This document shows, in pieces, positions 1,535 to 30,852 of a DNA stretch of 44,627 nucleotides. The stretch lies in assembly GCA_944359095.1 (NCBI GenBank), contig CALVSS010000002.1:1-44627 (forward strand), given 5' to 3'. The stretch's first letter is position 1, and each line of letters opens with the position of its first letter. Origin of the DNA: an uncultured Bacilli bacterium (GTDB lineage: Bacteria > Bacillota_I > Bacilli_A > RF39 > UBA660). Made by a program: the position numbers and the translations under genes. A model generated the notes under the pieces. It was not told where the DNA came from. It did not search any database and worked only from the letters and a program-made list of their open reading frames with translations.

Positions 1535-1573
1535 ACTATCACCTCCTTATACTTAGAGTATAGCATAATTTGG

Positions 1574-1603
1574 GAAAAAAAACTACTATTTAGCATTAGC
1601 AGT
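1574..1603 (-). terminator. Probable terminator overlapping the csp 3' end
   Basis: On the minus strand, ACTGCTA and TAGTAGT form a 7-bp stem (one G-U pair) with an 8-nt loop, followed by 8 T. Confidence 0.45.
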
Positions 1604-1807
1604 TTCTTTAACTAATTTTACATTTAAAGCTTGGTATCCCTTGCTTGTTTCAACCAATTTAAATTCTACTAGTTGTCCTTCAGATAAAGTCTTATAACCT
1701 TCTAATTCTATTGCTGAATAGTGTACGAATACATCTTCATTTTCTTTGTATTCAATAAAGCCATAGCCTTTATCATTGTTGAACCATTTTACGCGTCCAA
1801 CCATCAT
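1586..1807 (-). CDS. Cold-shock domain protein (CspA family)
   Basis: [19 protein letters not shown]...VFVHYSAI contains the RNP1/RNP2 motifs. Start set at ATG 1807, which has a GAGGTG RBS. The ORF-track start at 1837 adds 10 unlikely residues. Confidence 0.9.
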
Positions 1808-1943
1808 GTTCTTGCACCTCATTTCTACCAACAGCATCGTTTATCTCCTTGGTGATTACATCATACCAATTTTTGCCAACCCAACGACAAAAATTCCGTT
1901 AATTGCTATTGGTAGTTACTTTGATGGTTTGTATTCTTCTTTT

Positions 1944-1960: not shown

Positions 1961-2053
1961 AAATTTATTTTTAATTAATTATTTGATTGATTTTTTTGTT
2001 TTTAATCTTATTATAGTTATATAATAAGATTGATTGAGGTTTGGTGGTTGTAT

Positions 2054-2662
2054 ATGAAACAATTATTTTTGAATAAAAGCATGAATTTTATCTGCAAATA
2101 CCAATTCTTTTCTGACTACGATAAGAAAAAATTACGATATGGATTAGAAGGAATTTATCTTACTATTACCAAATTGGTTATATTACTCATTCTAGCTGTC
2201 ATATTAAATATGTTAAAAGAGTTTATTTTAGTAACTATTTTATTTAACATTATTCGATATACAGGTTTTGGATTTCATGCTGAAAAAAGTTATCAATGCT
2301 TATGCTTTTCAACTTTTAATTTTGTTGCAATACCATATTTTTTGTTACATGTACATTTACCTAACTCTGTAGTTTATATTATTTGTGCGATATGTATTTT
2401 TCACTATTTACTATTTGCACCTGCAGATACAAAAAAAAGACCTCTTTCAAATAAGAGAAAAAGGATCATTCGTAAAATTGTTACTGTTACGATTGGACTT
2501 ATTTATACATTTGCAATTATTTTATTGCAAAACGAATATTGGACTGCAATTATATTATCTGCGTTAGTTATTCAGTGCATTGTTGTTAGCCCAATTACAT
2601 ACTGGTTATTTAAACAACCTTATAATAATTACAAAGGATTAAATACTAGCAATAGTATTTAA
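2054..2662 (+). CDS. agrB: AgrB-family membrane peptidase (processes the autoinducing-peptide precursor)
   Basis: Polytopic membrane protein. IRYTGFGFHAEKSYQC has His and Cys 7 residues apart, as in S. aureus AgrB H77/C84. APADTKKRPL matches the conserved AgrB loop. ATG 2054 preferred over TTG 2030. Confidence 0.85.
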   Translation: MKQLFLNKSMNFICKYQFFSDYDKKKLRYGLEGIYLTITKLVILLILAVILNMLKEFILVTILFNIIRYTGFGFHAEKSYQCLCFSTFNFVAIPYFLLHVHLPNSVVYIICAICIFHYLLFAPADTKKRPLSNKRKRIIRKIVTVTIGLIYTFAIILLQNEYWTAIILSALVIQCIVVSPITYWLFKQPYNNYKGLNTSNSI

Positions 2663-2690
2663 TATAAATTATTAGAAAAGGAGATGTAGT

Positions 2691-2813
2691 ATGAAAAAAA
2701 GATTATCAATGTTACTTGCAGCAGTAGCTATGTTAGCAACAGGAGCAGCTAGTTTAGGATGTTGGTGGTGGACTGTTGATGAACCAGATTCATTTGGAAT
2801 ATTAAAGGACTAA
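2691..2813 (+). CDS. agrD: AgrD-like autoinducing-peptide precursor, 40 aa (MKKRLSMLLAAVAMLATGAASLGCWWWTVDEPDSFGILKD)
   Basis: Absent from the ORF track (too short). AAAGGAG RBS 7 nt upstream of the ATG, 28 nt after the agrB stop. Hydrophobic leader, single Cys, acidic Pro-containing tail. Confidence 0.7.
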   Translation: MKKRLSMLLAAVAMLATGAASLGCWWWTVDEPDSFGILKD

Positions 2814-2835
2814 GTTCCTTTTTTATTATGCCATT

Positions 2836-4128
2836 TTAATTTTTTGACACAAAAACTTGTTGAATATAGTAATTATCAATGATTTCTTGTTTTTGTTCTA
2901 GCCACTTATTTTCTTTGATTAATTTTGAGGCAAAATATAGACCGTTTCCTCTTCCCTCGCCTTTAGATGATACTCCTTTTTTATTTCTATCCTTCATATT
3001 TTTGTGCCTTTTAAATGTATTTGAAAAAACTATACTCACTCTATCTTTTAATTCATAAATTTCAATCATTAAATTTTTCTTTCTACTTTCAGCTGCAGCC
3101 TCGATTGCATTATCAAAATATATACCAATCAATTTACATAATATTCTAACTTGCTTCTCAGATAATTTTGTTAATAATCCTTTTGATTCAATACTTACAT
3201 CTGTTGTTAAATTTATTTTTTGTTTTTGTGCGATTGCCGCTTTATAATACATCAATCCCTTTATTCCTCCTTTTGGGAGGTTTTTTAGATTTGTTACTGC
3301 TTGTCCTTCAATATTAATATTATCTTCTAATATTTCATCGATTTTTTCTTTTACTTTCTTTTCTTTCGTTAAGCATCTTAACACAGCTAACTGATTTTTA
3401 TATTCATGGCGATTTAACTGCTCTTTTTCTATCCAATCTTCAAAATTTTGCACATATATAAACATATTATCATATTCATCAGATAATTTTTTATAATCAT
3501 TTTTTCCTTGGATATAAATAAACATAATTACAATAAATACAATTATAACAATTAAGTTTATAAAATATCCTTTTACATAAGTTTCTGTTATGGTAATATT
3601 ATATGCTAAACAGCTAAAATCAACGATTAATAATACAAAAAATATCCAATTTCCAACTACAATCTTTTCAGTTAGAGAAGATAAAAATTGTTTTATGGGA
3701 TTAACATTTTTATTAATATTGATAAATATAATACTTAAAGTTCCAACAGCGACATTTGCTGTAATATTTAATATTTCTGAATTTCGTATTTCATTGATAT
3801 CAAAGAATCCTCTCATGACAAAAGATACTAGCATATCTGAAATTAGCATTATTGTCATAGCAATTGTTGTACAAATGCTACTTTTTTCTAAAGATATATT
3901 AAATATTTCTTTAAAAAAAATTATATTTATAAGATACATTGTTAATGAAAATATCATTGTATATTGAATACGATGTAACATTACTGAAATTATTATTGAA
4001 ATTAATAAACAACCAATAATTTTAACATTTATATGTATATGTGGTTCATCTAAGATTTTTTTTATGATATAAAAGATTGTAAAAATCATTATAAGTGAAC
4101 ATATAATTTTATATAACTCCTCTAACAC
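2836..4128 (-). CDS. AgrC-like (HPK10 family) membrane sensor histidine kinase
   Basis: About 6 N-terminal TM helices, H-box RHEYKNQLAVL, N-box FDNAIEAA, G-box GRGNGLY. Start uncertain: GTG 4128 has an AAGGAGA RBS 9 nt upstream; the longest ORF starts at GTG 4179. Confidence 0.85.
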   Translation of the reverse strand: MLEELYKIICSLIMIFTIFYIIKKILDEPHIHINVKIIGCLLISIIISVMLHRIQYTMIFSLTMYLINIIFFKEIFNISLEKSSICTTIAMTIMLISDMLVSFVMRGFFDINEIRNSEILNITANVAVGTLSIIFININKNVNPIKQFLSSLTEKIVVGNWIFFVLLIVDFSCLAYNITITETYVKGYFINLIVIIVFIVIMFIYIQGKNDYKKLSDEYDNMFIYVQNFEDWIEKEQLNRHEYKNQLAVLRCLTKEKKVKEKIDEILEDNINIEGQAVTNLKNLPKGGIKGLMYYKAAIAQKQKINLTTDVSIESKGLLTKLSEKQVRILCKLIGIYFDNAIEAAAESRKKNLMIEIYELKDRVSIVFSNTFKRHKNMKDRNKKGVSSKGEGRGNGLYFASKLIKENKWLEQKQEIIDNYYIQQVFVSKN

Positions 4129-4840
4129 GATTATACATCTCCTTCTTTTTACTTCTTGAAGTTTCTTTGAATTCTTCACCGTTTTTTAATAGGACTAAGT
4201 TTTTAGTAAAATTATAACTACGAACTTGTTCTACGTTAATAGCAACGGCCCTATTACATTTTACAAATCTTTTATCTAATTTGGCTAGTACTTCATTTAA
4301 AGAACCTTGAATTAAATAAGTTCCATCTTCTGCTTCTATAATACATCTTTTGCTGTCCATTTCTTTTTCAATTTTTATAATATTTTTAAATTCTATATTA
4401 TAAGCTACATTTTTATAATTATATCTTAGGCATTTATATTTATTATCATAGTGTTTCATACATATTAGTAGGGCATCTTGTAGTTTTTTCTCTGAATGAT
4501 CTAGTTTATTTATAAAATCTACTAGCATTAATCTTTTACCTAGAGCCTCATATTTATATTCTGCATAACCTGATATCATAATTATCATTGATACCCAATC
4601 GTCTAATTCTTCTCTAATCATTCTAGCGGCATCTATTCCAGAACCTTCATCTGTTCTAATATCAAGTAAATAAATTTTAAATCCTTTTATTTGTTTTACT
4701 GCTTTCTTCCATAATGAATTATAATTTTTAAATGTATAACATTTATATTCAATATCATATTTCATCATAAACTTATCAATTTGCTCTTTATATCTTTTTA
4801 ATAAATTAGATTCATCCTCACAAATTATAAAATTTATCAT
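4109..4840 (-). CDS. LytTR-family response regulator (AgrA-like)
   Basis: Receiver domain (ICEDE acidic pocket, YLLDIRT phospho-acceptor Asp) plus a C-terminal LytTR DNA-binding domain. AAGGAGG RBS. Overlaps the kinase gene start. Confidence 0.9.
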   Translation of the reverse strand: MINFIICEDESNLLKRYKEQIDKFMMKYDIEYKCYTFKNYNSLWKKAVKQIKGFKIYLLDIRTDEGSGIDAARMIREELDDWVSMIIMISGYAEYKYEALGKRLMLVDFINKLDHSEKKLQDALLICMKHYDNKYKCLRYNYKNVAYNIEFKNIIKIEKEMDSKRCIIEAEDGTYLIQGSLNEVLAKLDKRFVKCNRAVAINVEQVRSYNFTKNLVLLKNGEEFKETSRSKKKEMYNRVRGVI

Positions 4841-4875
4841 TGGTTTTCCTCCTTTATTTTTACCAAAATTTTCCA

Positions 4876-4902
4876 GTTATATAATAAAGAAAAACTGCTA
4901 GT
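4876..4902 (-). terminator. Rho-independent terminator after the tagO-like gene
   Basis: ACTGCTA (4884-4890) pairs with TAGCAGT (4896-4902), 5-nt loop, then a T-rich run (TTTTTCTT) on the minus strand. Confidence 0.6.
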
Positions 4903-4920
4903 CGTTAGCAGTCCTTGGTT

Positions 4921-6024
4921 TTAGGATTTTTTTCTTCTGAAGAATGATATCTTTTGTTCTATTTCTTTTGTTCTTGTTGGTGTTTTATCAGAAATTATTG
5001 TAGTATGTAATACAAACCATAATACAATTATAAATATAATAATATATACTATTTTTCCTAAAACTGGATCTTTAATCGTATAAAGAATGGATGCTGATGC
5101 AAATAGTAGGTTTATACCATAAATAATTAATACTGTTGTTCTTTGAGAAAAGTTCATACCTAATAGTTGGTGATGTAAGTGTTGCTTGTCTGCTTGAAAT
5201 GGAGGTTGTCCTTTTAATAGTCTTCTTATAATAGCAAACAAGGTATCTAATATAGGAATTCCTAAAATCATAAGTGGTACAAAGAAAGATGTTAGGGCTG
5301 GTCCTTTAAATTCTAATAAAGTAATAATTGATATTATAAAGCCCATAAATGTTGCACAATCTCCGGCAAATATCTTTGCTGGATAAAAATTATGTAGTAA
5401 GAATCCTAAAGTAGATCCTAACATAATAAAGGTTAAAATCATTACTAAACTTCCACCACGGCCTTGATAAAATCCAATAATTCCAATTGTCAAATAGAAT
5501 ATTGAACATACTCCTCCGCTTAATCCATCTGCTCCATCTATTAAATTTATAATGTTCGTACAAGCAACGATAAATAATATAGTTATCCAAGGAGCAAATA
5601 TTCCAAAGTCAAATGAAAATCCAAACGCTGTTATATTATCTAATGTAATTTGGCCATAAAAGACTATAATACAAGCGGCTATTAAATGACCAATTAGTTT
5701 TTGATAGGCTCTTATTGGCTTAATGTCATCTGTGATTCCTGTTAAGACAACAATAAAACTTCCTATTAGTACAGAATTCATTCTAATACTTTGTTCTCCA
5801 AATAACATATATCCAAATAAAAATCCTAAAAAGATTCCAACTCCACCTAATTTAGGAGTTGCTTTTTTATGAATATGTCTATGTCCTTCATCTGCTCTTG
5901 GTACATCAATTGCTCCAACGTGTATTGCAATTTTTTTCATGAAAGGCATTATAATTGCAGTAAATATAAAAGTTACTAATACTATTTTACTAGCATCTAA
6001 AATTTGTTCTTTCATTATCGTCAC
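4921..6024 (-). CDS. Glycosyltransferase family 4, polyprenyl-phosphate sugar-1-phosphate transferase (TagO/WecA/MraY-like)
   Basis: 367 aa with about 10-11 TM helices and the NLIDGADGL motif typical of the MraY/WecA superfamily. Confidence 0.85.
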   Translation of the reverse strand: MTIMKEQILDASKIVLVTFIFTAIIMPFMKKIAIHVGAIDVPRADEGHRHIHKKATPKLGGVGIFLGFLFGYMLFGEQSIRMNSVLIGSFIVVLTGITDDIKPIRAYQKLIGHLIAACIIVFYGQITLDNITAFGFSFDFGIFAPWITILFIVACTNIINLIDGADGLSGGVCSIFYLTIGIIGFYQGRGGSLVMILTFIMLGSTLGFLLHNFYPAKIFAGDCATFMGFIISIITLLEFKGPALTSFFVPLMILGIPILDTLFAIIRRLLKGQPPFQADKQHLHHQLLGMNFSQRTTVLIIYGINLLFASASILYTIKDPVLGKIVYIIIFIIVLWFVLHTTIISDKTPTRTKEIEQKISFFRRKKS

Positions 6025-6078
6025 TTCCTATTAAAATTATATCATTTTTACTTTTAATAGAAAAGAAAAAAACCAATT

Positions 6079-7083
6079 TTATTGGTCTTCTTCTAGTAAA
6101 GCTATATTATTTAATAATGTTCCTGTTCCTTCAGCTACACAAGTAAGTGGAGATTCTGCAATTAAAATAGGGACTTGTAGTTCTTTTTCTAATACTTCTG
6201 GTAGTCCTGTAAGCATTGCTCCTCCACCAGTTAAAATAATACCTTTTTCAACAATATCTCCTGATAATTCTGGAGGTGTTTGCTCTAAAACATTGGTTGT
6301 CGCTTTAATTATTTTTTGAATACTTTCTTCTAAAGCTTTCTTTGTTTCATCTTGAGTTATTTCAATGGTATCTGGTAGGCCAGTAATTAAATTTCTTCCT
6401 CGTACTTCTAGTTTTTCTTTCTTATTCGGATCATAAATATTAGAGAATTTTATTTTTATGTCTTCGGCGGTTCTTTCTCCAATTAATAATTTATAATTAT
6501 CTTTTATATATTTTATGATATCTTGGTCGAAAACATTTCCAGCAATACGTACAGAAGCTGATGATACAATATCATTTAATGATAAAATAGCAATATCTGT
6601 TGTTCCTCCACCAATATCTATAACCATGTTGGCCGTTGGTTTTGAAATATCCATTCCTGCTCCAATAGCTGCAACTTTTGGTTCTTCTTCTATGTATACT
6701 TTTCTAGCTCCTGTTCTTTCAGCTGCTTCTTTAATAGCATTTTTTTCTACTTGTGTAATATTTGTTGGACAGCATATTAATATTCTTGGCCTTGAAAATA
6801 ATTTTTTTGCTTTTATTTTTTTGATAAATGTATTTAACATTATTTCTGTTATTTCAAAGTCAGCAATTACTCCATCTTTCATTGGCTTTATAGCCTTTAC
6901 TTTTCCTGGAGTTCTACCTAACATTTCATTTGCTTCTGTTCCAACAGCAATGACACTTTTAGAATCTGTATCAATTGCTACAATACTTGGTTCATTTAAT
7001 ACTATTCCTTGGCCTTTAACATATATTAAAACGTTTGCTGTTCCTAAATCTATTCCTATATCTTTTGCCCACATATATGTCAC
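6079..7083 (-). CDS. mreB: Rod-shape-determining actin homologue, MreB/Mbl family
   Basis: DIGIDLGTANVLIY, DIGGGTTD and LTGGGA actin-fold motifs. The start may be ATG 7074 rather than GTG 7083. Confidence 0.9.
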   Translation of the reverse strand: MTYMWAKDIGIDLGTANVLIYVKGQGIVLNEPSIVAIDTDSKSVIAVGTEANEMLGRTPGKVKAIKPMKDGVIADFEITEIMLNTFIKKIKAKKLFSRPRILICCPTNITQVEKNAIKEAAERTGARKVYIEEEPKVAAIGAGMDISKPTANMVIDIGGGTTDIAILSLNDIVSSASVRIAGNVFDQDIIKYIKDNYKLLIGERTAEDIKIKFSNIYDPNKKEKLEVRGRNLITGLPDTIEITQDETKKALEESIQKIIKATTNVLEQTPPELSGDIVEKGIILTGGGAMLTGLPEVLEKELQVPILIAESPLTCVAEGTGTLLNNIALLEEDQ

Positions 7084-7173
7084 ATCCTTTTCATCATTAA
7101 TATTTTATCATAAAATCGCCATTTTATAATAAAATATATTCATCTTTTTTTCTTTTATGAAAAAAAGAGTATA

Positions 7174-7821
7174 TTACTCTTTCTCTTCTGTTGTTTGTAA
7201 CTCTTTATTTAGATATAAAGTTGGATTTACAACTTGACCATTTACATATAATTCAAAGTGTAAATGATTACCCATATCTTTATCTAATTCATTTGTTCCA
7301 CTTTTACCAAGTACCTGTCCCTGAGTTACTACATCACCTTTTTTTACAGATGTTTCTGATAGACTTTGATATAAACTAACATATCCATTATCATGTTTAA
7401 TTTCTATTACTTTTCCTAAAGTTTCATCATCTTTTACATCTGTAACACTACCATCTAATATAGCTACAACATCAAATGTTTTTTCAGAAACAAAATCAAC
7501 TCCTGAATTTTGCATATATGTATTATCATGATAAATAATAGATTTTGTTTGGGTATCAGCATCTGCCTTATAATCATAATAGTTTTTACCTATTGTTACA
7601 GTTTGATCTGTATAAGGATTAATGATTGTTTTTGTTTCGTTGATTACTGGCTCTTCTTCTTCTTCAAGAATCGTATTTGTTACATAGCTAGTTGGATAAT
7701 CTTCTGTATTATCTTCTTTTTGTAAATTCTTGCTTAGCAATGCTGTTCCAAAAATTACACTTGTAATTGCTATAATCAATAGTGTTGGTAATACATATGG
7801 TCTTAGTTTTCTTCTTTTCAT
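7174..7821 (-). CDS. Membrane-anchored LytM (M23) domain protein with a degenerate metal site, SpoIIQ-like architecture
   Basis: N-terminal TM helix (LRPYVLPTLLIIAITSVIFGTALL) and a C-terminal LytM domain. HLHFE is retained, but the HxxxD motif reads NSGVD. Start at ATG 7821 with a GAGGTGA RBS. Confidence 0.7.
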   Translation of the reverse strand: MKRRKLRPYVLPTLLIIAITSVIFGTALLSKNLQKEDNTEDYPTSYVTNTILEEEEEPVINETKTIINPYTDQTVTIGKNYYDYKADADTQTKSIIYHDNTYMQNSGVDFVSEKTFDVVAILDGSVTDVKDDETLGKVIEIKHDNGYVSLYQSLSETSVKKGDVVTQGQVLGKSGTNELDKDMGNHLHFELYVNGQVVNPTLYLNKELQTTEEKE

Positions 7822-7872
7822 TTTTTTCACCTCATTATAAGTTTTGACCAAAAAAAAAGATTTATACTTCTT

Positions 7873-8070
7873 TTAAAAAAATTTTGAAGAAATAAATAAA
7901 TCCATTAAAAAGTTTGTTACTAAATAAATTAGTGATAGCCCTAATAGAAAATAAAATACTCTTGCTTGTACAATATGATTTTTTTTAAATATTTGATTTA
8001 TGTTGACTGAATCCATGGCCCAAATTACTACTATTGTTACAAATACATATAATAATAGTTTGCCTAACAT
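7873..8070 (-). CDS. Small integral membrane protein, DUF1146/YwzB-like
   Basis: 65 aa with two TM helices. Family assigned from recalled similarity and from the B. subtilis neighbourhood (ywzB near murAA and mbl). Confidence 0.55.
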   Translation of the reverse strand: MLGKLLLYVFVTIVVIWAMDSVNINQIFKKNHIVQARVFYFLLGLSLIYLVTNFLMDLFISSKFF

Positions 8071-8510
8071 TGTTGTTCCTCGTACTTTGCTATTTTTTGT
8101 CTACGTCTAACATGTTTTTCTTCATCTGATGCTTTGGTGTTTATAAATTTTTCTATTAGTTCTAGAGCCTTGGATAGTGTCGTTTTTTCTCCGAAAGCAA
8201 TAATATTTGCATCATTATCTTTTCTAGTTGCTTCTGCTTCTTCTATTCTATCTACTTTTGCACAACGAATTCCTTTTACTTTGTTACAGGCTATACTAAT
8301 TCCTATTCCTGTTCCACAAATAGCTATTCCAAAATCTGCATTTTTACTTGTAATTAGTTTTCCTAATTTAAAGGCATAATCTGGGTAATCCACAGATTGT
8401 TCTGAATTTGTTCCACAGTCAATCATTTGATATTTATCTTTTAATTGTTCTATAATTTGTTTTTTTAAATTATATCCTCTATGATCACTAGCAATTCCAA
8501 TTTTCAACAT
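8064..8510 (-). CDS. rpiB: Ribose-5-phosphate isomerase B (RpiB/LacAB family)
   Basis: MLKIGIASDHRGYNLK...GIAICGTGIGISIACNK is the typical RpiB core. Confidence 0.9.
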   Translation of the reverse strand: MLKIGIASDHRGYNLKKQIIEQLKDKYQMIDCGTNSEQSVDYPDYAFKLGKLITSKNADFGIAICGTGIGISIACNKVKGIRCAKVDRIEEAEATRKDNDANIIAFGEKTTLSKALELIEKFINTKASDEEKHVRRRQKIAKYEEQQC

Positions 8511-8574
8511 ACGTTTCCTTCTTTCTTATTAATATTATATCACTTAACAATGCTTTTTTCATTTATAACTATAT

Positions 8575-8597
8575 TTTATCCACAATTCCTGTGGATA
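8575..8597. promoter_or_regulatory. Inverted pair of DnaA-box-like 9-mers upstream of rpiB
   Basis: TTATCCACA (8575-8583) is a perfect DnaA-box consensus. After a 5-bp spacer, TGTGGATAT (8589-8597) is the reverse complement ATATCCACA, an 8/9 match. The arms form an 8-bp perfect palindrome. Confidence 0.3.
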
Positions 8598-8604
8598 TTT
8601 TATG

Positions 8605-8634
8605 TAAAACAAAAAAACTACTTTTCGTAGTTTT
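8605..8634 (-). terminator. Rho-independent terminator after the NrnA-like DHH gene
   Basis: AAAACTAC (8614-8621) pairs with GTAGTTTT (8627-8634), 5-nt loop, then a T-run on the minus strand. Overlaps the stop codon. Confidence 0.6.
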
Positions 8635-9619
8635 ATTTTTGTATTTTATGACTTAACTCTTCTTTAAGTGAAATCTTTTCTTTTTCTGCTTCATATTCAG
8701 AAAGAACTTTTGCTATTACATTTTCAAAGGTGTCATTATATAATCTTCCTACACACATTGTTTCATGACCACCACCATTACATTCTGTTGCAATTTCTAA
8801 GATGTTGATTGGACATTCACCTAACTTTTTAAATTTTATAATGTAGTCGTTTCCTATTCCTATGATAAAGCAACTTACTGGATTTTCTTTTGTTGGTGCA
8901 ACTTTCTTATGAAAGTCATTATGATTTACTAATAAAGAAGTATCTTTACTGTTTTCTGGCTCTAAAAGCTTATATACTTTTAATCCTTCTACTGGTACTG
9001 ATACTGGTTCTATTTTGCTTAGTAAATATTCTTGTTTAAGAGTTAGCTTTACCATACTTATAATTGCGTTTTGCTTTTCTTCGGATGTTAAAGGAAGCGA
9101 TAAAATAGTTTCTACCGTTTTGTCAGTTACATTATAATTAAATTCTGATGTATCTGATGCGATTCCTATATACAAGTTATAGGCCATATTACTAGGTATA
9201 TCTAGTTCTTTTTCTAATAATTTTTCAGCAATAATTTGACAAGTCGCTGCTGCCTTTGAATCAATTAATTTGTTATTATCTGGTACTTCTAATTCTACTC
9301 TATTACCTGTGTGATGATCAATTAAATATCTTTTTTCCACAGGTACTTGTTCAAATAGTTCTATACCATAAACTCTATCATATTCATTGGTATCGCAAAC
9401 TAAAGCATAATCCAAATGTATATTTTTTGCTTCTTCTATTGAAAAATGCTTTCTATTTCCTTTAACTTTTTCGTCTAAATAACTTGATTCTATTATAGGT
9501 ACTACTTTCAAATTTGAATAGTATGTTTCTAATATCTCTGCCATTGTCTCTGTGCTGCATAATGCATCTAGATCACATCCTTTATGAGTAAATATTCCAA
9601 CATTCTTCATAAGGGTCAT
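8633..9619 (-). CDS. DHH/DHHA1 phosphoesterase (NrnA-like nanoRNase / pAp phosphatase family)
   Basis: Motifs GCDLDALCS, IDHHTGN and GGGHETM in a 328-aa soluble protein. Confidence 0.75.
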   Translation of the reverse strand: MTLMKNVGIFTHKGCDLDALCSTETMAEILETYYSNLKVVPIIESSYLDEKVKGNRKHFSIEEAKNIHLDYALVCDTNEYDRVYGIELFEQVPVEKRYLIDHHTGNRVELEVPDNNKLIDSKAAATCQIIAEKLLEKELDIPSNMAYNLYIGIASDTSEFNYNVTDKTVETILSLPLTSEEKQNAIISMVKLTLKQEYLLSKIEPVSVPVEGLKVYKLLEPENSKDTSLLVNHNDFHKKVAPTKENPVSCFIIGIGNDYIIKFKKLGECPINILEIATECNGGGHETMCVGRLYNDTFENVIAKVLSEYEAEKEKISLKEELSHKIQK

Positions 9620-9667
9620 CTGCTTTCTAAAAGAAAAATATTATTCACATTTTATTAAGCTATTTTA

Positions 9668-9871
9668 TTATTTGTTAAAGCCATATTTTTTGTTGAATTT
9701 ATCAACACGTCCAGCACGTGATGCTCTACTTTGTTTTCCAGTATAGAATGGATGACATTTTGAACATACTTCAACGTTGATTTTATCTTTTGTTGATTTG
9801 CAAGTAAAAGTTTCTCCACATGCACAAGTAACTACGCAGTCTTTTACTTCTGGATGAATTCCTTTTTTCAT
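9668..9871 (-). CDS. rpmE: 50S ribosomal protein L31, Zn-binding type A
   Basis: MKKGIHPEV...CACGE...[10 protein letters not shown]. Start at ATG 9871 with a GGAAGGAG RBS. The ORF-track start at 9907 is too long. Confidence 0.9.
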
Positions 9872-9933
9872 ATTATCTCTCCTTCCGCCATAGCTCATTT
9901 GAGCCATAGTAATTAACTAGCGTTATTAGTATA

Positions 9934-10653
9934 TCAGTTATTTTTTTCTTTTGCAAGTTTTTTTGTTATTTCATAAGCTATTTTCTTATATCCTTCTCTT
10001 CTAATATAAATACTATTAGGATTTAAAAAATCTTCATTTGTTATTATCTTAGCTGTTGATATGTATTCTATTCCTTGCATATTTTTATAAATTGTTTCTA
10101 GTTTTGTTAATCCTTCTTTTATATATATATTTTCAAATGGGATATTAGGGTATCCAATGATATAAATAGTTTTTGGATAATATGTTTTTATTTCTTTTAT
10201 TAATCTTGTTAATTCTTTTTCAATATTGTTCATTATGCTATTTAATTTATACTCATTTAAATTTGGAGTGATTGCTATATGATAGATAAGGTCATTTAAT
10301 CCTATTGTTATTGTTACTAAATTGGATTCTCTTAATATTTCTTTTATATTTTTTTCACTATGATTTATTGTTATTTTTTCATTTGTTACGATTGCATCAT
10401 AAAGATTATTAATGGATTCATCTTTTGATGTGTAGTCTTTAGTATATAATTTTAATTTTTTACTTTTTTGTAAACTATCTTTTATAAAATCACTATAACC
10501 ATATTCTTCTATTCCATAGGAATTTATGCCTTTAGCATAGCCATCTCCTAAAGAAGTATAATTATAGTAATGATTGTGATTATTTTTATAAATCATAAAT
10601 ATTGTGAAAATAATAAGTAGAAAAATAATTAATTTATAGTGTTTTTTTATCAT
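9934..10653 (-). CDS. Membrane-anchored SGNH/GDSL-fold protein with substituted catalytic residues
   Basis: N-terminal TM helix. Block I reads LGDGYAKG where GDS is expected. Block III GLND is intact. Block V reads NSIY where DxxH is expected. Confidence 0.6.
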   Translation of the reverse strand: MIKKHYKLIIFLLIIFTIFMIYKNNHNHYYNYTSLGDGYAKGINSYGIEEYGYSDFIKDSLQKSKKLKLYTKDYTSKDESINNLYDAIVTNEKITINHSEKNIKEILRESNLVTITIGLNDLIYHIAITPNLNEYKLNSIMNNIEKELTRLIKEIKTYYPKTIYIIGYPNIPFENIYIKEGLTKLETIYKNMQGIEYISTAKIITNEDFLNPNSIYIRREGYKKIAYEITKKLAKEKNN

Positions 10654-13480: not shown

Positions 13481-13999
13481 TTAAAAATACTTATCAATTA
13501 CTTCTTTTACAAAGGAAGTATATTCGACATTTTCTTGCTCTTCTTCTGTATCAAGAAGACATAGTGGAGGAAATAATACGCACCAAAAGTTTTCTCCTAA
13601 GCCATTTCCTAACGTAATTACTAGGGATTCATATTCTCCTTCTTCGTAAACTATGCCTTTATATTCTTTTTCTGGAAAATAATTCATTCCATAATCTATT
13701 GTAAATGTTTCTTTACTTTGATTTTTTTCTAATGTTTCTTTTACAATTTTAGAAAATTCTGGGATAGTATTTTTTATATTTTTTCTAGAATTTTCTAGTG
13801 ATGTATCTAAAAAAGTTAATTTTCTAATTTCTTGATTTAAATTAGTTACTACTTTCTTTTTTAAGGTTTGGTCTTCTTCTTTATCACTGTTAGCAATTAC
13901 TCTAAATCTTATCGCCTCTTTGGGAATGATTACTTTTTCTTCTTTATTAATCGCTAATATAGTAATTATTACTGCTAAAAAGATAATTAGTTTTTTCAT
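13481..13999 (-). CDS. spoIIR: Stage II sporulation protein R-like signalling protein
   Basis: Signal/anchor helix, then AIRFRVIANSDKEEDQTLK and the C-terminal FWCVLFPPLC motif typical of SpoIIR. Syntenic with B. subtilis (near prmC and mntP). Confidence 0.75.
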   Translation of the reverse strand: MKKLIIFLAVIITILAINKEEKVIIPKEAIRFRVIANSDKEEDQTLKKKVVTNLNQEIRKLTFLDTSLENSRKNIKNTIPEFSKIVKETLEKNQSKETFTIDYGMNYFPEKEYKGIVYEEGEYESLVITLGNGLGENFWCVLFPPLCLLDTEEEQENVEYTSFVKEVIDKYF

Positions 14000-16577: not shown

Positions 16578-18326
16578 TTACATTTTTTCTGGAACTTTTA
16601 TTGCTAAAATATCTAATAATAACATGTTTATATCATAAACAATTTTTGTTAATGTTAACCAAGATTTTTGAAGTTCTTTGTTTTCTTCTGTTAAAATTCT
16701 ATTTTCTGCGTAAAATTTATTATATAAAGATGTAAGTTTATAAATATATTCTGTGATGTCATTTAAACTTCTAGAATCTAGGGCTTTATCTAAAACTATT
16801 GGTAATCTTAAAATCGTTAGGGCTATATCTTTTTCTGTTTCTGTTTTAAATTGAGTTATTTTACCGATATTTAAAGTACTTCCCTTATCTAATAACGATT
16901 TCATACGGATTGTTGAATATAATAAATATGGTCCTGTTTTTCCTTCTAAGTCTGCAAACTTTTCTGGATCAAAGATATAATCTGTTCCTCTATATGGAAG
17001 TAAATCTGCATATTTTAGGGCAGCAATTGCTACTTCTTCGGCAACTTCTTCTCTCTTTGATTCTTCTACAGTATCTGGATTGATTTTTTTTCTTGTTACT
17101 TCTTCTACTAGAGCAATTAGATTTTTTAAACTCATAACTCCACCATCACGAGTTTTAAATGGTTTTCCGTCTTTTCCATTCATTGTACCAAAGCCAATAT
17201 GTTCTAAGCCAACGTTATCATCTACTAATTTTACTTTTCTAGCAGCTCTAAATACTTGTTCAAAGTGTAATCCTTGACGAGCATCAACACAATACCAAAT
17301 TTCGTCTGGATTTAGTTCTTTTTTTCTTTGAAGAATAGTTGCTAAATCCGTTGTTTCATAAGATATTGTTCCGTTAGAACGTTTGAATAATAGTGGTGGC
17401 ATAGGTGATTTATCTGTTTCCTCTTTTACTTCTACAACTTGAGCTCCTTCACTTTCGGTTAAAGCATTTTGTTGTTCATAGATTTCAGTTAATTCATCTA
17501 TATATTCTGCAGCATCACTTTCTCCTAGCCATAATTCAAAATTTACATTTAATTTATCGTAGACTTGTTTAATATCATTTTTAGAAATTTCTACTACTTT
17601 TTTCCATAAATCATAATATCCTCTTTCATGATTTTGGATTTTATATGTAATATCTCTTGCTTCTTCTAGGTATTCTTCGTCTTCTTTGGACTTATTTGAG
17701 GCAAATGGATAGATTTCTTCTAAGTCTTTATTTGTTATTGTCAATTTAATTTCACTATAATCTCCCTTATATGAAGTATCAAAATAAGCTAAATTAGGAT
17801 ATCTTTTCTTAATTTCTAATACAACTAATCCTAGTGGTCTACCATAATCTCCTAAATGGGCATCTCCTATTACTTCATATCCTAGGGCTTTAGCTAATCT
17901 CTTTAGGGCTTCTCCAATATTAGCACTTCTTAAATGACCAACATGTAAGGCTTTTGCTACATTTGCTCCACCATAATCTAGTACTACTTTTTTCTTTGGT
18001 CGCTTATCTATATTTAAACTTTTATCTTCATATATTTTAGTTAATAGTTCACCTAAATACTCATCTGTTAAAGTAATATTAATAAATCCAGGTCCAGCTA
18101 TATTTAAATTTGTAAATCTTCCATCTTCTTCTAATACTTTTACGATATCTTGGGCAATGATTCTAGGATTCTTTTTATATATTTTTGCTAAATTCATAGC
18201 GTCATTTAATTGAAATTGCCCTAAATCTCTTCTTCCAGATGGTTGCAATATTACGTTTTCTTCTTGATATCCAGTTTTTTCTACGATTTTTTTCATATTT
18301 TTATTTAAGTCTTTTATTATACTCAT
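16578..18326 (-). CDS. argS: Arginyl-tRNA synthetase
   Basis: 582 aa class I synthetase. HIGH-type motif (AKALHVGHLRS), plus anticodon-binding domain length and order. Confidence 0.95.
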   Translation of the reverse strand: MSIIKDLNKNMKKIVEKTGYQEENVILQPSGRRDLGQFQLNDAMNLAKIYKKNPRIIAQDIVKVLEEDGRFTNLNIAGPGFINITLTDEYLGELLTKIYEDKSLNIDKRPKKKVVLDYGGANVAKALHVGHLRSANIGEALKRLAKALGYEVIGDAHLGDYGRPLGLVVLEIKKRYPNLAYFDTSYKGDYSEIKLTITNKDLEEIYPFASNKSKEDEEYLEEARDITYKIQNHERGYYDLWKKVVEISKNDIKQVYDKLNVNFELWLGESDAAEYIDELTEIYEQQNALTESEGAQVVEVKEETDKSPMPPLLFKRSNGTISYETTDLATILQRKKELNPDEIWYCVDARQGLHFEQVFRAARKVKLVDDNVGLEHIGFGTMNGKDGKPFKTRDGGVMSLKNLIALVEEVTRKKINPDTVEESKREEVAEEVAIAALKYADLLPYRGTDYIFDPEKFADLEGKTGPYLLYSTIRMKSLLDKGSTLNIGKITQFKTETEKDIALTILRLPIVLDKALDSRSLNDITEYIYKLTSLYNKFYAENRILTEENKELQKSWLTLTKIVYDINMLLLDILAIKVPEKM

Positions 18327-18679
18327 TCTATCACCTCTAATTGATATTTATATTCTTCATTTTCTAATTGATAATCTATTTTAATATTTTTTGCTTCTTT
18401 TATAATATTTTTTGTATTTATTGATAAATTTAATTCTTTTTTTAAGCTTTTCATCATTATTTTTCCCGTTGTTATCTTTTCTTTGGTAAATGGATATTCC
18501 ATCCATAGTTCATCATTTTCTCGTCGGAGTTTTAAATCATTTAATTCTAATTGAACCATTGTATTATTTTCTTCTTTATATACTATCTTATTTTCGTTGG
18601 GATGATAAATAGCCTTATATTTTTTTTCAAGGATTGTATCTGGTGTTACTAATGTAACTTTTACGTTTATTTTGGGCAT
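18323..18679 (-). CDS. DUF1934 / YwiB-like beta-barrel protein
   Basis: 118 aa, translationally coupled to argS by a 4-nt overlap, the same position as ywiB in B. subtilis. Confidence 0.65.
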   Translation of the reverse strand: MPKINVKVTLVTPDTILEKKYKAIYHPNENKIVYKEENNTMVQLELNDLKLRRENDELWMEYPFTKEKITTGKIMMKSLKKELNLSINTKNIIKEAKNIKIDYQLENEEYKYQLEVIE

Positions 18680-18735: not shown

Positions 18736-18759
18736 AATTAAAAAAGGCTTATGCCTTTT
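18736..18759 (-). terminator. Rho-independent terminator after the 258-aa hypothetical gene
   Basis: AAAAGGC (18742-18748) pairs with GCCTTTT (18753-18759), TTAT loop, then a T-run on the minus strand. Confidence 0.6.
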
Positions 18760-19525
18760 CTCTTGATATATATGTATATATTCCATCTTCTTCTTGTTCA
18801 AATGTATAAATATAATTTTCTGCTGTTGTCACTTTGGAATCATCCATGCTGGTTGTTGTCACTGTTTCATACAATTTTATTTGTTTTCCTATTTTTTCTG
18901 CTTTTGTTAATTCTTTTGTAGTTTCTACTGCTGATGAACCCCCAGCTTCTATTGCAAATAAAATATAAGCATCTAAAGATTGTACATATTTATATCTTCC
19001 TACTCCATATTTATCAGTAAACATAATTGTATTTAAATCTAAATTAGCTTGGGAACCATATAAGGTTTTATAGATTCTTTCTACTACATCTTTAGAAATC
19101 ATATTTTTTCCTTGACTATAACAATTACCTAGATTAGGATCTGTTTGATTTGGTACTTGAAAGCAAGAAATCATATCCATGTCAGATTCTTTAATATTAA
19201 CATATACTAATTCCATTTTATTTACTTCTGGCATGTTTTTGATGTCAATTTTAGCTTGACTCATTCCTTCTATTTCATACATCCAATATGGTGTATATTT
19301 ACTATTCATTCCCACTTCATTATATAAATTTTGAACAAGTCGATTATCTAAACTTAAATTTTCTTGCTTTTCTTCGCTTGAGGTATTTTCTTTTGGTAAA
19401 TTTTCTTTTTCTTTTGGTGTAGTAATATATAACTTATTATAGCCAATATACGTTAAACTTAGTAATAAACCTATTAGTAATATTATAATTAGGACTGTTT
19501 TTCCAGGACTTTTTTCTCTTTCCAT
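18749..19525 (-). CDS. Hypothetical membrane-anchored extracytoplasmic protein
   Basis: 258 aa with one N-terminal TM helix (TVLIIILLIGLLLSLTYIGY) and then a polar linker. I recognise no family motif. Confidence 0.6.
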   Translation of the reverse strand: MEREKSPGKTVLIIILLIGLLLSLTYIGYNKLYITTPKEKENLPKENTSSEEKQENLSLDNRLVQNLYNEVGMNSKYTPYWMYEIEGMSQAKIDIKNMPEVNKMELVYVNIKESDMDMISCFQVPNQTDPNLGNCYSQGKNMISKDVVERIYKTLYGSQANLDLNTIMFTDKYGVGRYKYVQSLDAYILFAIEAGGSSAVETTKELTKAEKIGKQIKLYETVTTTSMDDSKVTTAENYIYTFEQEEDGIYTYISREKA

Positions 19526-19627: not shown

Positions 19628-21601
19628 ATGCGTTTTTTTAGAAAATTAGCTAAATTATCGATGATTATTTTTGTTGTTATTTTACTTATTTACTTGGGTA
19701 TATATTTATATGTTAAATTATCACCAAAAGTAGTAATTAATACTACTAATAGTGTTTTTCTATATGATAAAAATGAAGAAGTCTTTTTTCAGGGAAATGA
19801 TGAGAAAGAATGGGTATCACTTGATGATATATCCCCTTATGTTATTGATGCTACTATCTATACTGAAGATAAGAATTTTTATAAACATCATGGATTTGAC
19901 TATTTAAGAATTTTAAAGGCCTTATATGTTAACCTAACTGCAGGTTCTACTAAGCAGGGTGCTTCTACTATTACTCAACAGTATGCTAAAAATTTGTTTT
20001 TATCTTTTGATAAAACTTGGAAAAGAAAATGGGACGAAATGTGGTATACCATTAAAATTGAAGCTAATTATTCTAAAGATGAAATATTAGAAGGTTATTT
20101 AAATACTATTAATTATGGTCATGGAATGTATGGTATTGAAAATGCTAGTAAATATTATTTTGGTAAATCTGCTAGTGAACTAGATTTGGCTGAAGCAACG
20201 ATTTTAACAGGAATACCAAAATCTCCTTCTAATTATTCTCCTTTAATTAATCTTGATGCTGCGAAAGAAAGGCAATTATTAATTTTAAATACACTTGTAG
20301 AAAACGGTATTATTTCGGAAAAAGAAAAGAATAAAGCATATGATGAAGAACTCGTTTTCTTAGGTAAAGAAGACCGTGAAGAATTAACGACTGTTATGTA
20401 TTATCATGATGCGGTTATGGATGAATTAGAGACTATTGATAGTATTCCAAAATCTTATTCTGATACTAGTGGATTAAAAATCTATACTAATTTGGATTGG
20501 GATTTGCAAAAGAAAGTGGAAGAGAATATTAAAGAGTCTATTCCAGAAGACTCTGATATTCAGACTTCTGTTGTTTTAATGGATCCTAATACTGGTGGTG
20601 TTTTGGCCTTAGTTGGTGGAAAAAATTATAATGAATCTTCGTATAATCGAGCTACTGATTCTTTAAGACAAGTGGGTTCTACGATGAAACCATATCTTTA
20701 TTATGCTGCTTTAGAAAATGGATTTACTTCCAGTTCTTCTTTTACTAGTGAAGAGACTACGTTTGTTTTTAATAATCAAGAAGATTATACTCCGCAAAAT
20801 TATAATAAAACGTATGGTAACAAACCTATTTCTATGGGTACTGCTATTGCCTATTCAGAAAATATTTATGCTGTTAAAACTCATCTTTTTTTAGGAGGAG
20901 ATGCGTTAATTAATGTTGCTAGAAGAGTTGGTATTACTTCTAAATTAGAAAATGTTCCTTCTTTACCACTTGGTACCAATGAAATTAATATTTTAGAGAT
21001 GGCGGCTGGATATTCTGCTTTTGCTAATTTAGGATATAAAGTTGAACCTCATTTTATTGAAAAAGTTGTAGATTCCGATGGAAAGGTTTTATATGAAGCG
21101 AAAAACAAAAAAGATGCTGTTTTAAATCCTAGTATTACATTTATTTTAAACAATTTATTAACTGCTACTTATGATCCTGATTATATCGATTATAATTATC
21201 CAACGGCTATTGGTCTTTCTTCTAAACTTACTCATAAATATGCTTTAAAGAGTGGAACAACTGAAACGGATAATTGGGATATTGGGTTTAATAAGAATGT
21301 GGTTTGTGCCGTTTGGGTTGGTTATGATGATAATCAAGCTTTAAAAACTAGTGAATATAAATATGCACAAAATATTTGGTATCAATCAATTGAATATTAT
21401 GAGCGAAATGTTGATAGTAATGATGGTTGGTATGAAATGCCTAGTAATGTTTCTGCGGTATTAGTAGAACCAATTTCTGGTCGTTTAGCAACTGATACGG
21501 ATAAGAAAAAGAAAATGATGTATTTTATTAAAGGAACAGAACCAACTAGTAGTGAACAAGAAGTTTTTGATGAAAAAGTTGATGGTAGTTATCCTTCTTG
21601 A
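19628..21601 (+). CDS. Class A penicillin-binding protein (bifunctional glycosyltransferase/transpeptidase, PBP1A type)
   Basis: GT51 motifs EDKNFYKHHGFD and GASTITQQ. Transpeptidase motifs STMKP, SEN and KSGT. Confidence 0.9.
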   Translation: MRFFRKLAKLSMIIFVVILLIYLGIYLYVKLSPKVVINTTNSVFLYDKNEEVFFQGNDEKEWVSLDDISPYVIDATIYTEDKNFYKHHGFDYLRILKALYVNLTAGSTKQGASTITQQYAKNLFLSFDKTWKRKWDEMWYTIKIEANYSKDEILEGYLNTINYGHGMYGIENASKYYFGKSASELDLAEATILTGIPKSPSNYSPLINLDAAKERQLLILNTLVENGIISEKEKNKAYDEELVFLGKEDREELTTVMYYHDAVMDELETIDSIPKSYSDTSGLKIYTNLDWDLQKKVEENIKESIPEDSDIQTSVVLMDPNTGGVLALVGGKNYNESSYNRATDSLRQVGSTMKPYLYYAALENGFTSSSSFTSEETTFVFNNQEDYTPQNYNKTYGNKPISMGTAIAYSENIYAVKTHLFLGGDALINVARRVGITSKLENVPSLPLGTNEINILEMAAGYSAFANLGYKVEPHFIEKVVDSDGKVLYEAKNKKDAVLNPSITFILNNLLTATYDPDYIDYNYPTAIGLSSKLTHKYALKSGTTETDNWDIGFNKNVVCAVWVGYDDNQALKTSEYKYAQNIWYQSIEYYERNVDSNDGWYEMPSNVSAVLVEPISGRLATDTDKKKKMMYFIKGTEPTSSEQEVFDEKVDGSYPS

Positions 21602-21607
21602 CATTTC

Positions 21608-21636
21608 TTGACATTAATCAATATTTTTGGTATAAT
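21608..21636 (+). promoter_or_regulatory. Perfect consensus sigma-A promoter with extended -10
   Basis: TTGACA (21608-21613), 17-bp spacer, TG at 21628-21629, TATAAT (21631-21636). Lies 29 nt upstream of the ATG at 21665. Confidence 0.7.
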
Positions 21637-21664
21637 ATACAACACTTGAAGAAGGGAATTCGTT

Positions 21665-22966: not shown

Positions 22967-22990
22967 GGCCTTGGGCCTTTTTTATTTTTC
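22965..22990 (+). terminator. Rho-independent terminator after the 433-aa ORF
   Basis: AAGGCC (22965-22970) pairs with GGCCTT (22974-22979), then TTTTATTTTT. Confidence 0.7.
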
Positions 22991-23052
22991 TGTTTACTTT
23001 CTTCCTTTTTCTTTCCTAATTTGTTATAATTATATTATCCGGGGTGATGCTA

Positions 23053-23586
23053 ATGATAGAATATATTTTAGGTGGTATTGTTTTAGTTTCTCTATTAGGA
23101 ATTGTAATTATTGTATATCATAATAAATTTCGTATTTCTGTAGTTAAGATGGAAGAAGCTGAAAATAATATTGACTTATTTTTACAAAAGAAATTAGATT
23201 TATTAAAAAGAGGAAAACAAATTGTGATTAAAGAACTAAAATTAGAAAGTTTTTTAGATCAACTTGATAGTGAGACTGTTTCAGAACTTAATCATTTTGA
23301 ATTAAATGACTTATTAAAACGTTCTTATAATGATTTTTTTCAATTATTAGATGAAAACGAAAAATTGTTTAAGAGTGAATCTTTATCTCATATTATAAAT
23401 GATATTAATGATAATGAAATTGATTTGGTTGCTGCTATTAAGTTTTATAATGATTCTGTTGTTGTTTTTAATCAATTGATTGTTAGTTTTCCGTCTAATA
23501 TTATTAGATTATTCTTTGGATATCGTAAAAAAGAGTTTTATAATCATGAAAAAAGAGAAATTTATGAAATATTAAAGGAAAATTAA
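23053..23586 (+). CDS. lemA: LemA family membrane protein
   Basis: N-terminal TM helix, then the LemA helical domain ending in YNDSVVVFNQLIVSFPSNII. Start set at ATG 23053, 5 nt after GGTGAT. The ORF track starts at GTG 23044. Confidence 0.85.
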   Translation: MIEYILGGIVLVSLLGIVIIVYHNKFRISVVKMEEAENNIDLFLQKKLDLLKRGKQIVIKELKLESFLDQLDSETVSELNHFELNDLLKRSYNDFFQLLDENEKLFKSESLSHIINDINDNEIDLVAAIKFYNDSVVVFNQLIVSFPSNIIRLFFGYRKKEFYNHEKREIYEILKEN

Positions 23587-23597
23587 AGGAGGGTATT

Positions 23598-26510: not shown

Positions 26511-26511
26511 T

Positions 26512-28002: not shown

Positions 28003-28003
28003 T

Positions 28004-29353: not shown

Positions 29354-29363
29354 ATTTTCACCT

Positions 29364-29804: not shown

Positions 29805-29805
29805 T

Positions 29806-30795: not shown

Positions 30796-30821
30796 TTTTG
30801 CCTCCTGTGTTCTTCTTTCTT

Positions 30822-30850
30822 ATTATATAATACTTTCTTTCGTTTGTAAA
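30822..30850 (-). promoter_or_regulatory. Sigma-A-type promoter for the DHH-rplI-dnaB operon
   Basis: On the minus strand: TTTACA, 17-bp spacer, TATAAT, directly after the rpsR terminator. Confidence 0.5.
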
Positions 30851-30852
30851 AT

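Follow-up and report, generated by a model that had tools for sequence, protein, structure and literature searches.

In Staphylococcus aureus, agrBDCA is transcribed from P2 and RNAIII is transcribed divergently from P3, and the variable segments of the peptide and of the sensor are contiguous within agrBDCA. In Clostridium perfringens, the regulator gene lies ahead of the kinase gene (virRS), agrBD is located away from the genes of this two-component system, and the agrBD-encoded peptide has a Trp/Phe-rich five-residue ring, CLWFT. In the fsr system of Enterococcus faecalis, all the genes are co-oriented, fsrA forms a transcription unit distinct from that of the peptide genes, and the peptide lactone comes from the end of FsrB/FsrD. 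The agr2 locus of Clostridioides difficile is described as having the order agrACDB, a "reverse order" in which the regulator is listed first and which possibly corresponds to one transcript, and two transcription units are predicted for agrBD and agrCA of Clostridium acetobutylicum (PMC3754575, PMC8534292). Links between agr and sporulation have also been described in clostridia (PMC8251862). We report here an agr-type quorum-sensing locus located between csp and tagO in a 44,627-nt stretch of DNA from an RF39 gut bacterium (hereafter the window, meaning this whole stretch). It comprises agrB, agrD and the genes of an AgrC-like kinase and of an AgrA-like response regulator (Table 1). The best overall explanation of the data, which we find moderately probable, is that of a working agr-type system, vertically inherited at a fixed chromosomal site, made of two convergent units, having csp as its output and linked to Spo0A; this grading applies to all these parts taken jointly. 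The agr components themselves are already known, and automatic annotation recognises parts of the locus. What appears to be new here is (i) the lineage-wide picture in RF39, (ii) the layout with non-contiguous variable segments, (iii) the degenerate regulator-only derivatives and (iv) a promoter architecture that points to csp and Spo0A.

Table 1. Coordinates of the agr-type locus and of its predicted control elements in the window.
Feature	Position	Strand	Remarks
csp	1586..1807	-	73-aa cold-shock-domain protein; Pfam CSD 89.6 bits; divergent from agrBD; candidate output gene
csp promoter, extended -10 TGGTATGAT	1860..1868	-	no recognisable -35
Proximal LytTR-type half-site GCAATTAACGGAA	1894..1906	-	family consensus ACAATTTACGGAA; about -42 to -54 from predicted csp start
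Distal half-site, degenerate ACCATCAAAGTAA	1916..1928	-	22 bp upstream of proximal copy
Two perfect Spo0A boxes, TGTCGAA-TTT-TGTCGAA	1944..1960	-	3-bp spacer; plus-strand reading TTCGACAAAATTCGACA
agrBD promoter, predicted -10 TATAAT	2020..2025	+	poor -35 TTGTTT at 1996-2001
agrB	2054..2662	+	membrane peptidase/cyclase processing AgrD; 202 aa; Pfam PF04647 108 bits
agrD	2691..2813	+	40-aa autoinducing-peptide precursor MKKRLSMLLAAVAMLATGAASLGCWWWTVDEPDSFGILKD; 28 nt after agrB
Weak hairpin + T-run	2804..2821	+	overlaps agrD stop codon; possible agrBD terminator; 6-bp stem; z -0.76 and -1.75, not significant
AgrC-like HPK10 histidine kinase gene	2836..4128	-	430 aa; HATPase_c_5 (PF14501), a domain characteristic of kinases associated with LytTR regulators
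AgrA-like response regulator gene	4109..4840	-	243 aa; receiver with Asp60 + LytTR; Pfam LytTR PF04397 47.5 bits
TGGAA-AATTT-TGGTA (TGGNA-N5-TGGNA)	4860..4875	-	between tagO terminator and regulator ribosome-binding site; single match in window
tagO intrinsic terminator	4890..4916	-	terminator scan (11 pairs + T-run) and fold

The open reading frame (ORF) map and the profile searches placed all four genes where the preliminary description of this DNA had located them. Only the start of agrB differs, the public gene calls on identical contigs using the ATG at 2054 and not the TTG at 2030, which is an alternative upstream start; the location of the gene on the plus strand stands. His75 and Cys82 of AgrB are invariant in 43 orthologues, and we take their spacing of seven residues to match that of His77 and Cys84 in S. 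aureus AgrB. AgrD gave no match at E ≤ 0.01 in Pfam or NCBIfam; its top sub-threshold match is TIGR04223, an AgrD family (14.9 bits, cut-off 19), and sub-threshold matches to this model were obtained for seven out of ten AgrD-family peptides tested (13.3-16.7 bits against the same cut-off). Orthologous ORFs of 39-41 aa are present in 45 related loci, with the same GC-x5-(D/E)EP architecture and a leader of the type ...A(M/L)LATGAAS(L/M)GC. In the window, the conserved leader ...ATGAAS(L/M)G is followed by Cys24, five variable residues (WWWTV), the invariant (D/E)EP and a variable tail ending in D. In many of the orthologues (L022-L081), the C-terminus is ...(L/M/F)CD and thus includes a second Cys, two residues from the invariant terminal Asp; the window peptide ends in ILKD and is devoid of this second Cys.

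The kinase ORF spans positions 2836-4179, and the public gene calls start the gene at the GTG at 4128. Hydropathy and motif analyses place about seven hydrophobic segments in residues 1-206 (the sensor), followed by His241, an N box at 339 and a G box at 390. The NCBIfam AgrC model matches the whole length of the protein with 41.8 bits, a partial DcuS/MalK kinase-core model scoring slightly higher (46.1 bits). Since the equivalog cut-off of the AgrC model is 500 bits, the kinase is not an orthologue of staphylococcal AgrC. Its PDB matches are solely S. aureus AgrC kinase modules (6e52 and 4bxi being the best ones), the JGI annotation already calls its close homologues "AgrC", and the best 120 matches of a homology search all belong to the same lineage (58-100% identity). 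The receiver domain of the regulator scores 26.3 bits, below the cut-off of 30.2, and retains the acidic pair and Asp60. AgrA is its top NCBIfam match (45 bits, equivalog cut-off 400), and its PDB matches are solely the S. aureus AgrA LytTR domain. His241 of the kinase and Asp60 of the regulator presumably correspond to staphylococcal His239 and Asp59. The distance of both equivalog scores from their cut-offs (45 vs 400 and 42 vs 500 bits) could suggest that the pair is a LytTR system of the bacteriocin or competence type, with its peptide encoded elsewhere, lying beside an orphan agrBD. However, AgrA and AgrC are the sole matches among the NCBIfam quorum-sensing models and among the PDB chains, the pair strictly co-occurs and co-diversifies with agrD, and the loss of agrBD was accompanied by that of the kinase in 15 out of 16 cases. 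These data make a bacteriocin or competence system very improbable and agree with the agr-type assignment initially proposed.

As had been described, the two gene pairs are convergent: the stop codons of agrD and of the kinase gene are 22 nt apart in the window, this gap being 5-60 nt in most species and -11 (an overlap) in L019. The regulator-first order and the overlap of the regulator and kinase genes are also confirmed, the stop codon of the regulator gene (4109-4111) lying within a kinase gene that starts at the GTG at 4128. This generates a 20-nt overlap, and the AAGGAGA ribosome-binding site (4138-4144, minus strand), 9 nt before this GTG, is included in the regulator gene. The 20-nt overlap recurs in 37 of the 41 loci carrying a full cassette (40 related genomes and the window), and the two genes are translationally coupled through it. 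The hairpin of the terminator located after tagO is kept across species with differing stem sequences, and this terminator makes the regulator-kinase pair a separate transcription unit. The convergent units, the regulator-first order and the terminator before the regulator gene thus bear out the difference from the single staphylococcal agrBDCA operon noted previously. Between the convergent stop codons, only a weak hairpin was detected (Table 1), and folding of the agrD/kinase gap of the window revealed no counterpart that would terminate the kinase unit; the two convergent units may therefore plausibly read through into each other. On the agrBD side, the -10 (consensus TAtaaT) keeps a constant distance to the agrB start; among 40 species, four of its positions are conserved in at least 90% and the other two in at least 70%. 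A scan of the AT-rich window for sigma-70 consensus promoters was uninformative (20 sites compared to 29.9 expected).

Two gut metatranscriptomes, which are runs of one study, contain short unstranded agrB contigs (2053-2439 and 2053-2280, about 99.7% identity, depth of about 10) and have zero depth over the kinase gene, the regulator gene and tagO. This RNA evidence is thin and supports the expression of agrBD in vivo. Both contigs end at 2053, one base before the agrB start codon; the metagenome-type contigs X22 and X25 are interrupted at 1985 and 2070, along the border of the variable region. The end common to both contigs more likely reflects an interruption of the assembly at the variable intergenic region than the end of a transcript. 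Four "metagenomic RNA-Seq" runs were rejected as RNA evidence, being DNA-like or broken at the variable region.

Like the S. aureus agr system, the RF39 locus combines four components with matching catalytic positions, a polytopic sensor, hypervariability of the peptide and of the sensor, and a divergent neighbour preceded by LytTR-type repeats with a 21-22 bp period. It differs from the S. aureus locus (i) by its two convergent units, in which the regulator gene precedes and overlaps that of the kinase, (ii) by its non-contiguous variable segments, the convergent layout holding the two variable parts apart with the conserved kinase core between the sensor and agrD, (iii) by its divergent neighbour, which is a protein gene (csp) and not a regulatory RNA, and (iv) by the absence of a clear repeat at the agrBD promoter and the presence of Spo0A boxes. 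C. difficile agr2 and the C. acetobutylicum locus share with it a complete agr set, a spore-forming host and an order other than agrBDCA; C. difficile agr2 is strain-variable, whereas the RF39 locus is syntenic across the whole lineage. The regulator gene precedes that of the kinase as in virRS, and it is separated from the peptide genes as in fsr; unlike in fsr, the RF39 units are convergent. The CLWFT ring of C. perfringens resembles the CWWWT and CLWWT rings of RF39. No description of a convergent agr pair was found in the running text of the papers searched, and our genome survey was confined to RF39.

The prevalence of this organization was analyzed by using the tagO-like protein as a probe of species-representative genomes. 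This retrieved 80 loci, all of them from uncultured gut "Bacilli/Tenericutes/Mycoplasmatota" metagenome-assembled genomes, including Candidatus Faecimonas, to which the organism of the window is close. This genus, CAG-877 in GTDB (family CAG-611 of order RF39), has genomes of about 1.4 Mb with 28% G+C (PMC8035907). The resulting set of 81 species-level genomes, window included, was compared with the window proteins by tblastn and then classified. A full cassette with the arrangement tagO > regulator > kinase < agrD < agrB, csp > hpf was found at the same place in 43 of the 81 loci, i.e., between tagO and csp in 43 of the 65 informative genomes. Other loci carry a partial cassette running to the contig end (n = 12), the regulator alone between tagO and csp (n = 15), the regulator and kinase without agrBD (n = 1) or no regulator (n = 6, among which five are also devoid of csp), and four are uninformative. 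On a rough neighbour-joining tree based on tagO and mreB, the full cassette occurs on both deep branches, and the reduced states appear at several separate places. The simplest reading would be that of an ancestral locus that was repeatedly reduced, the exceptions looking secondary.

The preliminary description had viewed the cassette as an accessory insertion between csp and tagO in a Bacillus-like neighbourhood. A recent insertion of a mobile agr cassette at this site would fit its G+C content (22-26%), slightly under that of the flanks (about 30%), and its absence from some relatives. However, a lower G+C content is expected of membrane-protein genes in an AT-rich genome, and the genomes without the cassette keep remnants of it, namely the regulator and the intergenic region. 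Furthermore, neither mobility genes nor flanking repeats were found at the locus, and its position and order are the same in 43 species belonging to both deep branches. The comparison of the csp/tagO interval across relatives, which shows a largely lineage-wide conservation, thus contradicts the proposed insertion, which we hold to be hardly credible; the neighbourhood is also that of an RF39 gut bacterium rather than a Bacillus-like one.

In the regulator-only genomes, the regulator gene stops right beside the Spo0A boxes, and all these genomes keep an intact region upstream of csp. Most of their receivers no longer have the acidic pair or the phospho-acceptor Asp, in place of which N, S, G, A or F is found, and the LytTR domain is well kept. 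Since the regulator outlives the kinase and the peptide, it must have a target worth keeping. The locus with regulator and kinase (L066, 9177-11517) encodes a very divergent kinase (34% identity), is devoid of agrBD and of Spo0A boxes, and retains a good pair of half-sites (ACAATTGAGGGAA, with GCATTTCGCGGCC 21 bp upstream); it is possibly a "listener only" variant. Three other loci display peculiarities. In L011 (11190-12600), agrB is broken into two ORFs, and the kinase gene is separated from agrD by about 640 additional nt. In L014 (11200-13734), the synteny ends after the kinase gene, with short insertion sequence-like ORF fragments and an unknown ORF of 357 aa. In L085 (84-1245), a DDE transposase gene occupies the place expected for mreB and the M23 gene.

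The peptide and the sensor display a pherotype-like variation. Among the 45 AgrD orthologues, the five residues between Cys and (D/E)EP vary almost freely. Over 40 species, mean column identity is 0.24-0.40 for the sensor half of the kinase, compared to 0.45-0.84 for the kinase core, 0.79 for TagO and 0.84 for Csp. Between near-identical genomes, the identity is 12-50% for the sensor half vs 76-100% for the kinase half (about five C-terminal residues excepted). For example, the window and L003 encode Csp and Hpf proteins that are 100% identical, kinase cores (residues ~225-425) with 76-100% identity and sensors with 12-40% identity, and about 515 nt have no detectable nucleotide similarity. 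Such a joint diversification of the peptide and of the kinase sensor beside conserved flanks is, as judged from the alignments, the classic agr pherotype pattern. Because the AgrD ring and the sensor co-diversify, the populations would carry different signal/receptor specificities.

Variation was also observed within the species of the window. Two haplotypes from other samples, L083 and L086, are about 99-100% identical to it over 4200-10128, and 70-95% identical, in a patchy manner, across the sensor, the kinase core and agrD. In the first third of the sensor, their identity with the window is 70-88%; in the remainder of the sensor, it is 97-99% for L083 and 73-89% for L086. It amounts to about 84-95% over the kinase core and agrD, rises to 99-100% in agrB (2100-2550), falls to 75-82% between csp and agrB and is about 90% for csp and hpf. 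The AgrD rings of these haplotypes are CLWWT and CLWWV, compared to CWWWT in the window. Since each haplotype recurs in independent assemblies, this pattern argues for a within-species recombinational mosaicism and not for an assembly chimera; it would imply several recombination junctions inside the 3-kb locus.

Putative control sites were searched by aligning the csp-agrB intergenic region of 40 species and by anchoring 59 csp upstream regions on the extended -10 of the csp promoter. Four conserved blocks were found in the intergenic region: the agrBD TATAAT, tandem Spo0A boxes, a proximal LytTR-type half-site and a degenerate distal copy of the latter. The csp promoter motif TGnTAnnAT keeps a constant spacing from the csp start and is conserved in most of the 59 loci having the regulator as well as csp. 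The proximal half-site scores 15.9 bits in the window and has a fixed position in 58 loci. We take its consensus to resemble the AgrA site ACAGTTAAG, and the geometry to be that of AgrA-type LytTR sites; relative to the predicted csp transcription start, the pair of half-sites covers about -42 to -76. No convincing LytTR repeats had been noticed upstream of either transcription unit. The comparison of 40-58 species reveals a conserved, imperfect repeat, of 21-22 bp period, ahead of the divergent csp, which was missed because a single sequence had been read. A scan of the window against Rfam detected no RNAIII-like or other RNA, the sole sub-threshold match being the cspA model over the csp coding region. 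An extended -10 (TGCTATACT, about 1548-1556, minus strand) is present for hpf in the 51-nt csp-hpf gap; since hpf has its own promoter motif, csp is probably a unit separate from hpf.

The tandem of perfect Spo0A boxes is unique in the window, where only 0.12 occurrence would be expected even with two mismatches. Upstream of csp, at least one perfect box is present in 49 of the 59 loci, and the tandem in 43 of them, for a background of 0.09 per kb. TGTCGAA is the core of the Spo0A box, and pairs with a 3-bp spacer are also bound by Spo0A (PMC3485338, PMC2731898). The 0A boxes of C. difficile spo0A, sigH, lplA and ssuA lie 67-82 nt before the start codon (PMC3485338), and Spo0A sites are known in phages phi29 and Nf (PMC2731898). 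The perfect pair of RF39, located 69-110 nt upstream of two promoters, resembles these arrangements. Control of an agr peptide operon or of csp by Spo0A through tandem perfect boxes was not found in the literature searched. We consider the chances that Spo0A really acts at these boxes, on agrBD, csp or both, to be evenly balanced. This same pair forms the 10-bp tandem repeat seen near agrB (TTCGACAAAA x2), which was rejected as a LytTR site: its period is 10 bp, it exactly matches two 0A boxes and it persists in loci without agrB.

Upstream of the regulator gene, the TGGNA element is conserved in the 40-species alignment, and its second half doubles in many species as a TRTG-extended -10. It is present in the truncated locus L078 and missing from the regulator-only loci except L039, the others having plain TGnTAnAAT promoters. 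The sequence TGGAAAA-N3-TGGTAA was rejected as a sigma-54, sigma-H, sigma-F or sigma-B promoter and as a CtsR, WalR or cre site, the spacing or core bases being inconsistent with the consensus sequences of these sites. The element does fit the definition of an AbrB-type site, i.e., a tandem TGGNA pair joined by 4-5 A/T bases, a site of low specificity even in Bacillus (PMC3025583). We regard its assignment as an AbrB-type site as doubtful.

The following mechanism can be proposed. AgrB would remove the AgrD tail after the variable segment and close a thiolactone on Cys24. By analogy with known five-residue rings, the ring would be CWWWT; since five variable positions precede DEP, a six-residue ring (CWWWTV) is also possible. 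The peptide would activate the kinase, leading to autophosphorylation on His241 and then to phosphate transfer to Asp60 of the regulator. The phosphorylated regulator would bind the csp-proximal repeat and turn on the csp promoter, which is devoid of a -35, so that csp would be a direct output holding the position that RNAIII has in staphylococci. Through the two boxes located between the repeat and the agrBD promoter, Spo0A would govern signal production and/or csp, and the regulator-kinase unit may be subject, through the TGGNA element, to an AbrB-like transition-state repressor. The window genome gives no evident sign of a closed positive feedback on agrBD. A more speculative extension, which we put forward tentatively and deem rather unlikely in its entirety, is that the agr output is the Csp RNA chaperone, that Spo0A gates signal and output and an AbrB-like repressor the receptor, that agr is a branch of the circuit of sporulation entry in a 1.4-Mb genome, and that the orphan regulator is a phosphorylation-independent csp activator.

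The link from the regulator to csp seems to us close to an even call, with a slight lean towards doubt. It is favoured by the joint presence or absence of the regulator and the csp upstream region across the 65 informative genomes, L057 having a csp that survives without the regulator but has lost its upstream region. Furthermore, 27 of the 58 loci have their best second copy of the half-site 21-22 bp away from the proximal one, compared to 6.7 loci on average and 16 at most over 500 shuffles, a statistic that is inflated by the non-independence of related sequences; the mean score of the half-site position weight matrix (PWM) peaks at an offset of 21. These observations, together with the resemblance of the half-site to the AgrA consensus, speak against the possibility that the intergenic elements are devoted to csp regulation only, as a UP-like element or as sites for Spo0A or another factor, the LytTR regulator having its targets elsewhere. 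That possibility, which we judge unlikely, would agree with the fixed distance of the elements from the csp -10, with the degeneracy of the distal copy in many species and with the lack of specificity of the single-site PWM.

Besides the inflation of the spacing statistic, several points weigh against the mechanism proposed above. The distal half-site is weak in the window itself (2.5 bits), and the PWM used alone is non-specific genome-wide, with further matches only in conserved coding sequence. The Spo0A boxes persist in regulator-only genomes without agrB, so that they may serve csp only, and TGGNA is a motif of low specificity even in Bacillus. Finally, a degenerate copy of the half-site adjoins the agrB -35 in some species, which makes a feedback on agrBD possible. 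The latter point would fit a classical closed autoinduction of the staphylococcal P2 type. The phosphorylated regulator would then activate agrBD, possibly together with its own operon, the intergenic repeat would act on both divergent promoters, and csp would be a bystander or a secondary target. This reading is favoured by the location of the repeat in a divergent intergenic region, as for P2/P3, by the presence in several species of a degenerate half-site 60-70 nt ahead of the agrB start (ACAATTTATGGAT in L011, with 12.5 bits, for example) and by the poor -35 of the agrB promoter, as in activator-dependent promoters. However, the strong repeat lies 104-138 nt from the predicted agrB start and only about 40-75 nt from that of csp, and it is kept in genomes that lost agrBD. 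Moreover, when half-sites were scanned for, neither the window nor most species had one of at least 7 bits adjoining agrB, and no comparable site was found upstream of the regulator gene. We therefore consider closed autoinduction to be somewhat unlikely.

The members of RF39, an uncultured order that is abundant in the gut, have very small genomes; they are poorly understood, and their phenotypes are only predicted. A strictly syntenic quorum-sensing system that diversifies into pherotypes would mean that these bacteria invest in cell-cell signalling and strain discrimination, and its short synthesisable peptides (CWWWT, CLWWT, CLWWV and others) could be used to probe or manipulate RF39 in chicken and mammalian gut communities. 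The loci carrying the full system, the receptor only or only a regulator with a degenerate receiver would form a natural series toward a phosphorylation-independent regulator. If the link to csp and Spo0A is true, this would be an agr system with an RNA chaperone gene as its first target and with signal production tied to Spo0A, a tie often proposed for clostridia and rarely visible in promoter sequence.

The sequencing runs that contain the window DNA are chiefly chicken gut metagenomes. Spore formation has been predicted for RF39 from gene content (PMC10868615). The window encodes SpoIIR (13481-13999), with 129.5 bits for Pfam Spore_II_R and an NCBIfam score of 145 bits that is slightly below the cut-off (151.9). 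It also encodes an M23 protein (7174-7851) whose best NCBIfam match is SpoIIQ (173 bits, cut-off 250). Four ORFs (18323-18679, 18749-19525, 21665-22966 and 23044-23586, encoding 118, 258, 433 and 180 aa) had no NCBIfam match at E ≤ 1e-5, and the one at 18749-19525, the sole one of the four compared with Pfam, had no match there either. Nearly all the window genes are on the minus strand, the only plus-strand groups being agrBD and the genes at 19628-24593; agrBD is therefore probably head-on to replication. The window is origin-proximal, as indicated by jag, mnmE, mnmG, rsmG, parAB, ssb and a dnaB-type helicase gene. These genes, together with ychF and rplI, lie within 26000-44627, a region that also encodes a 469-aa ParB-like protein with a long additional C-terminal part.

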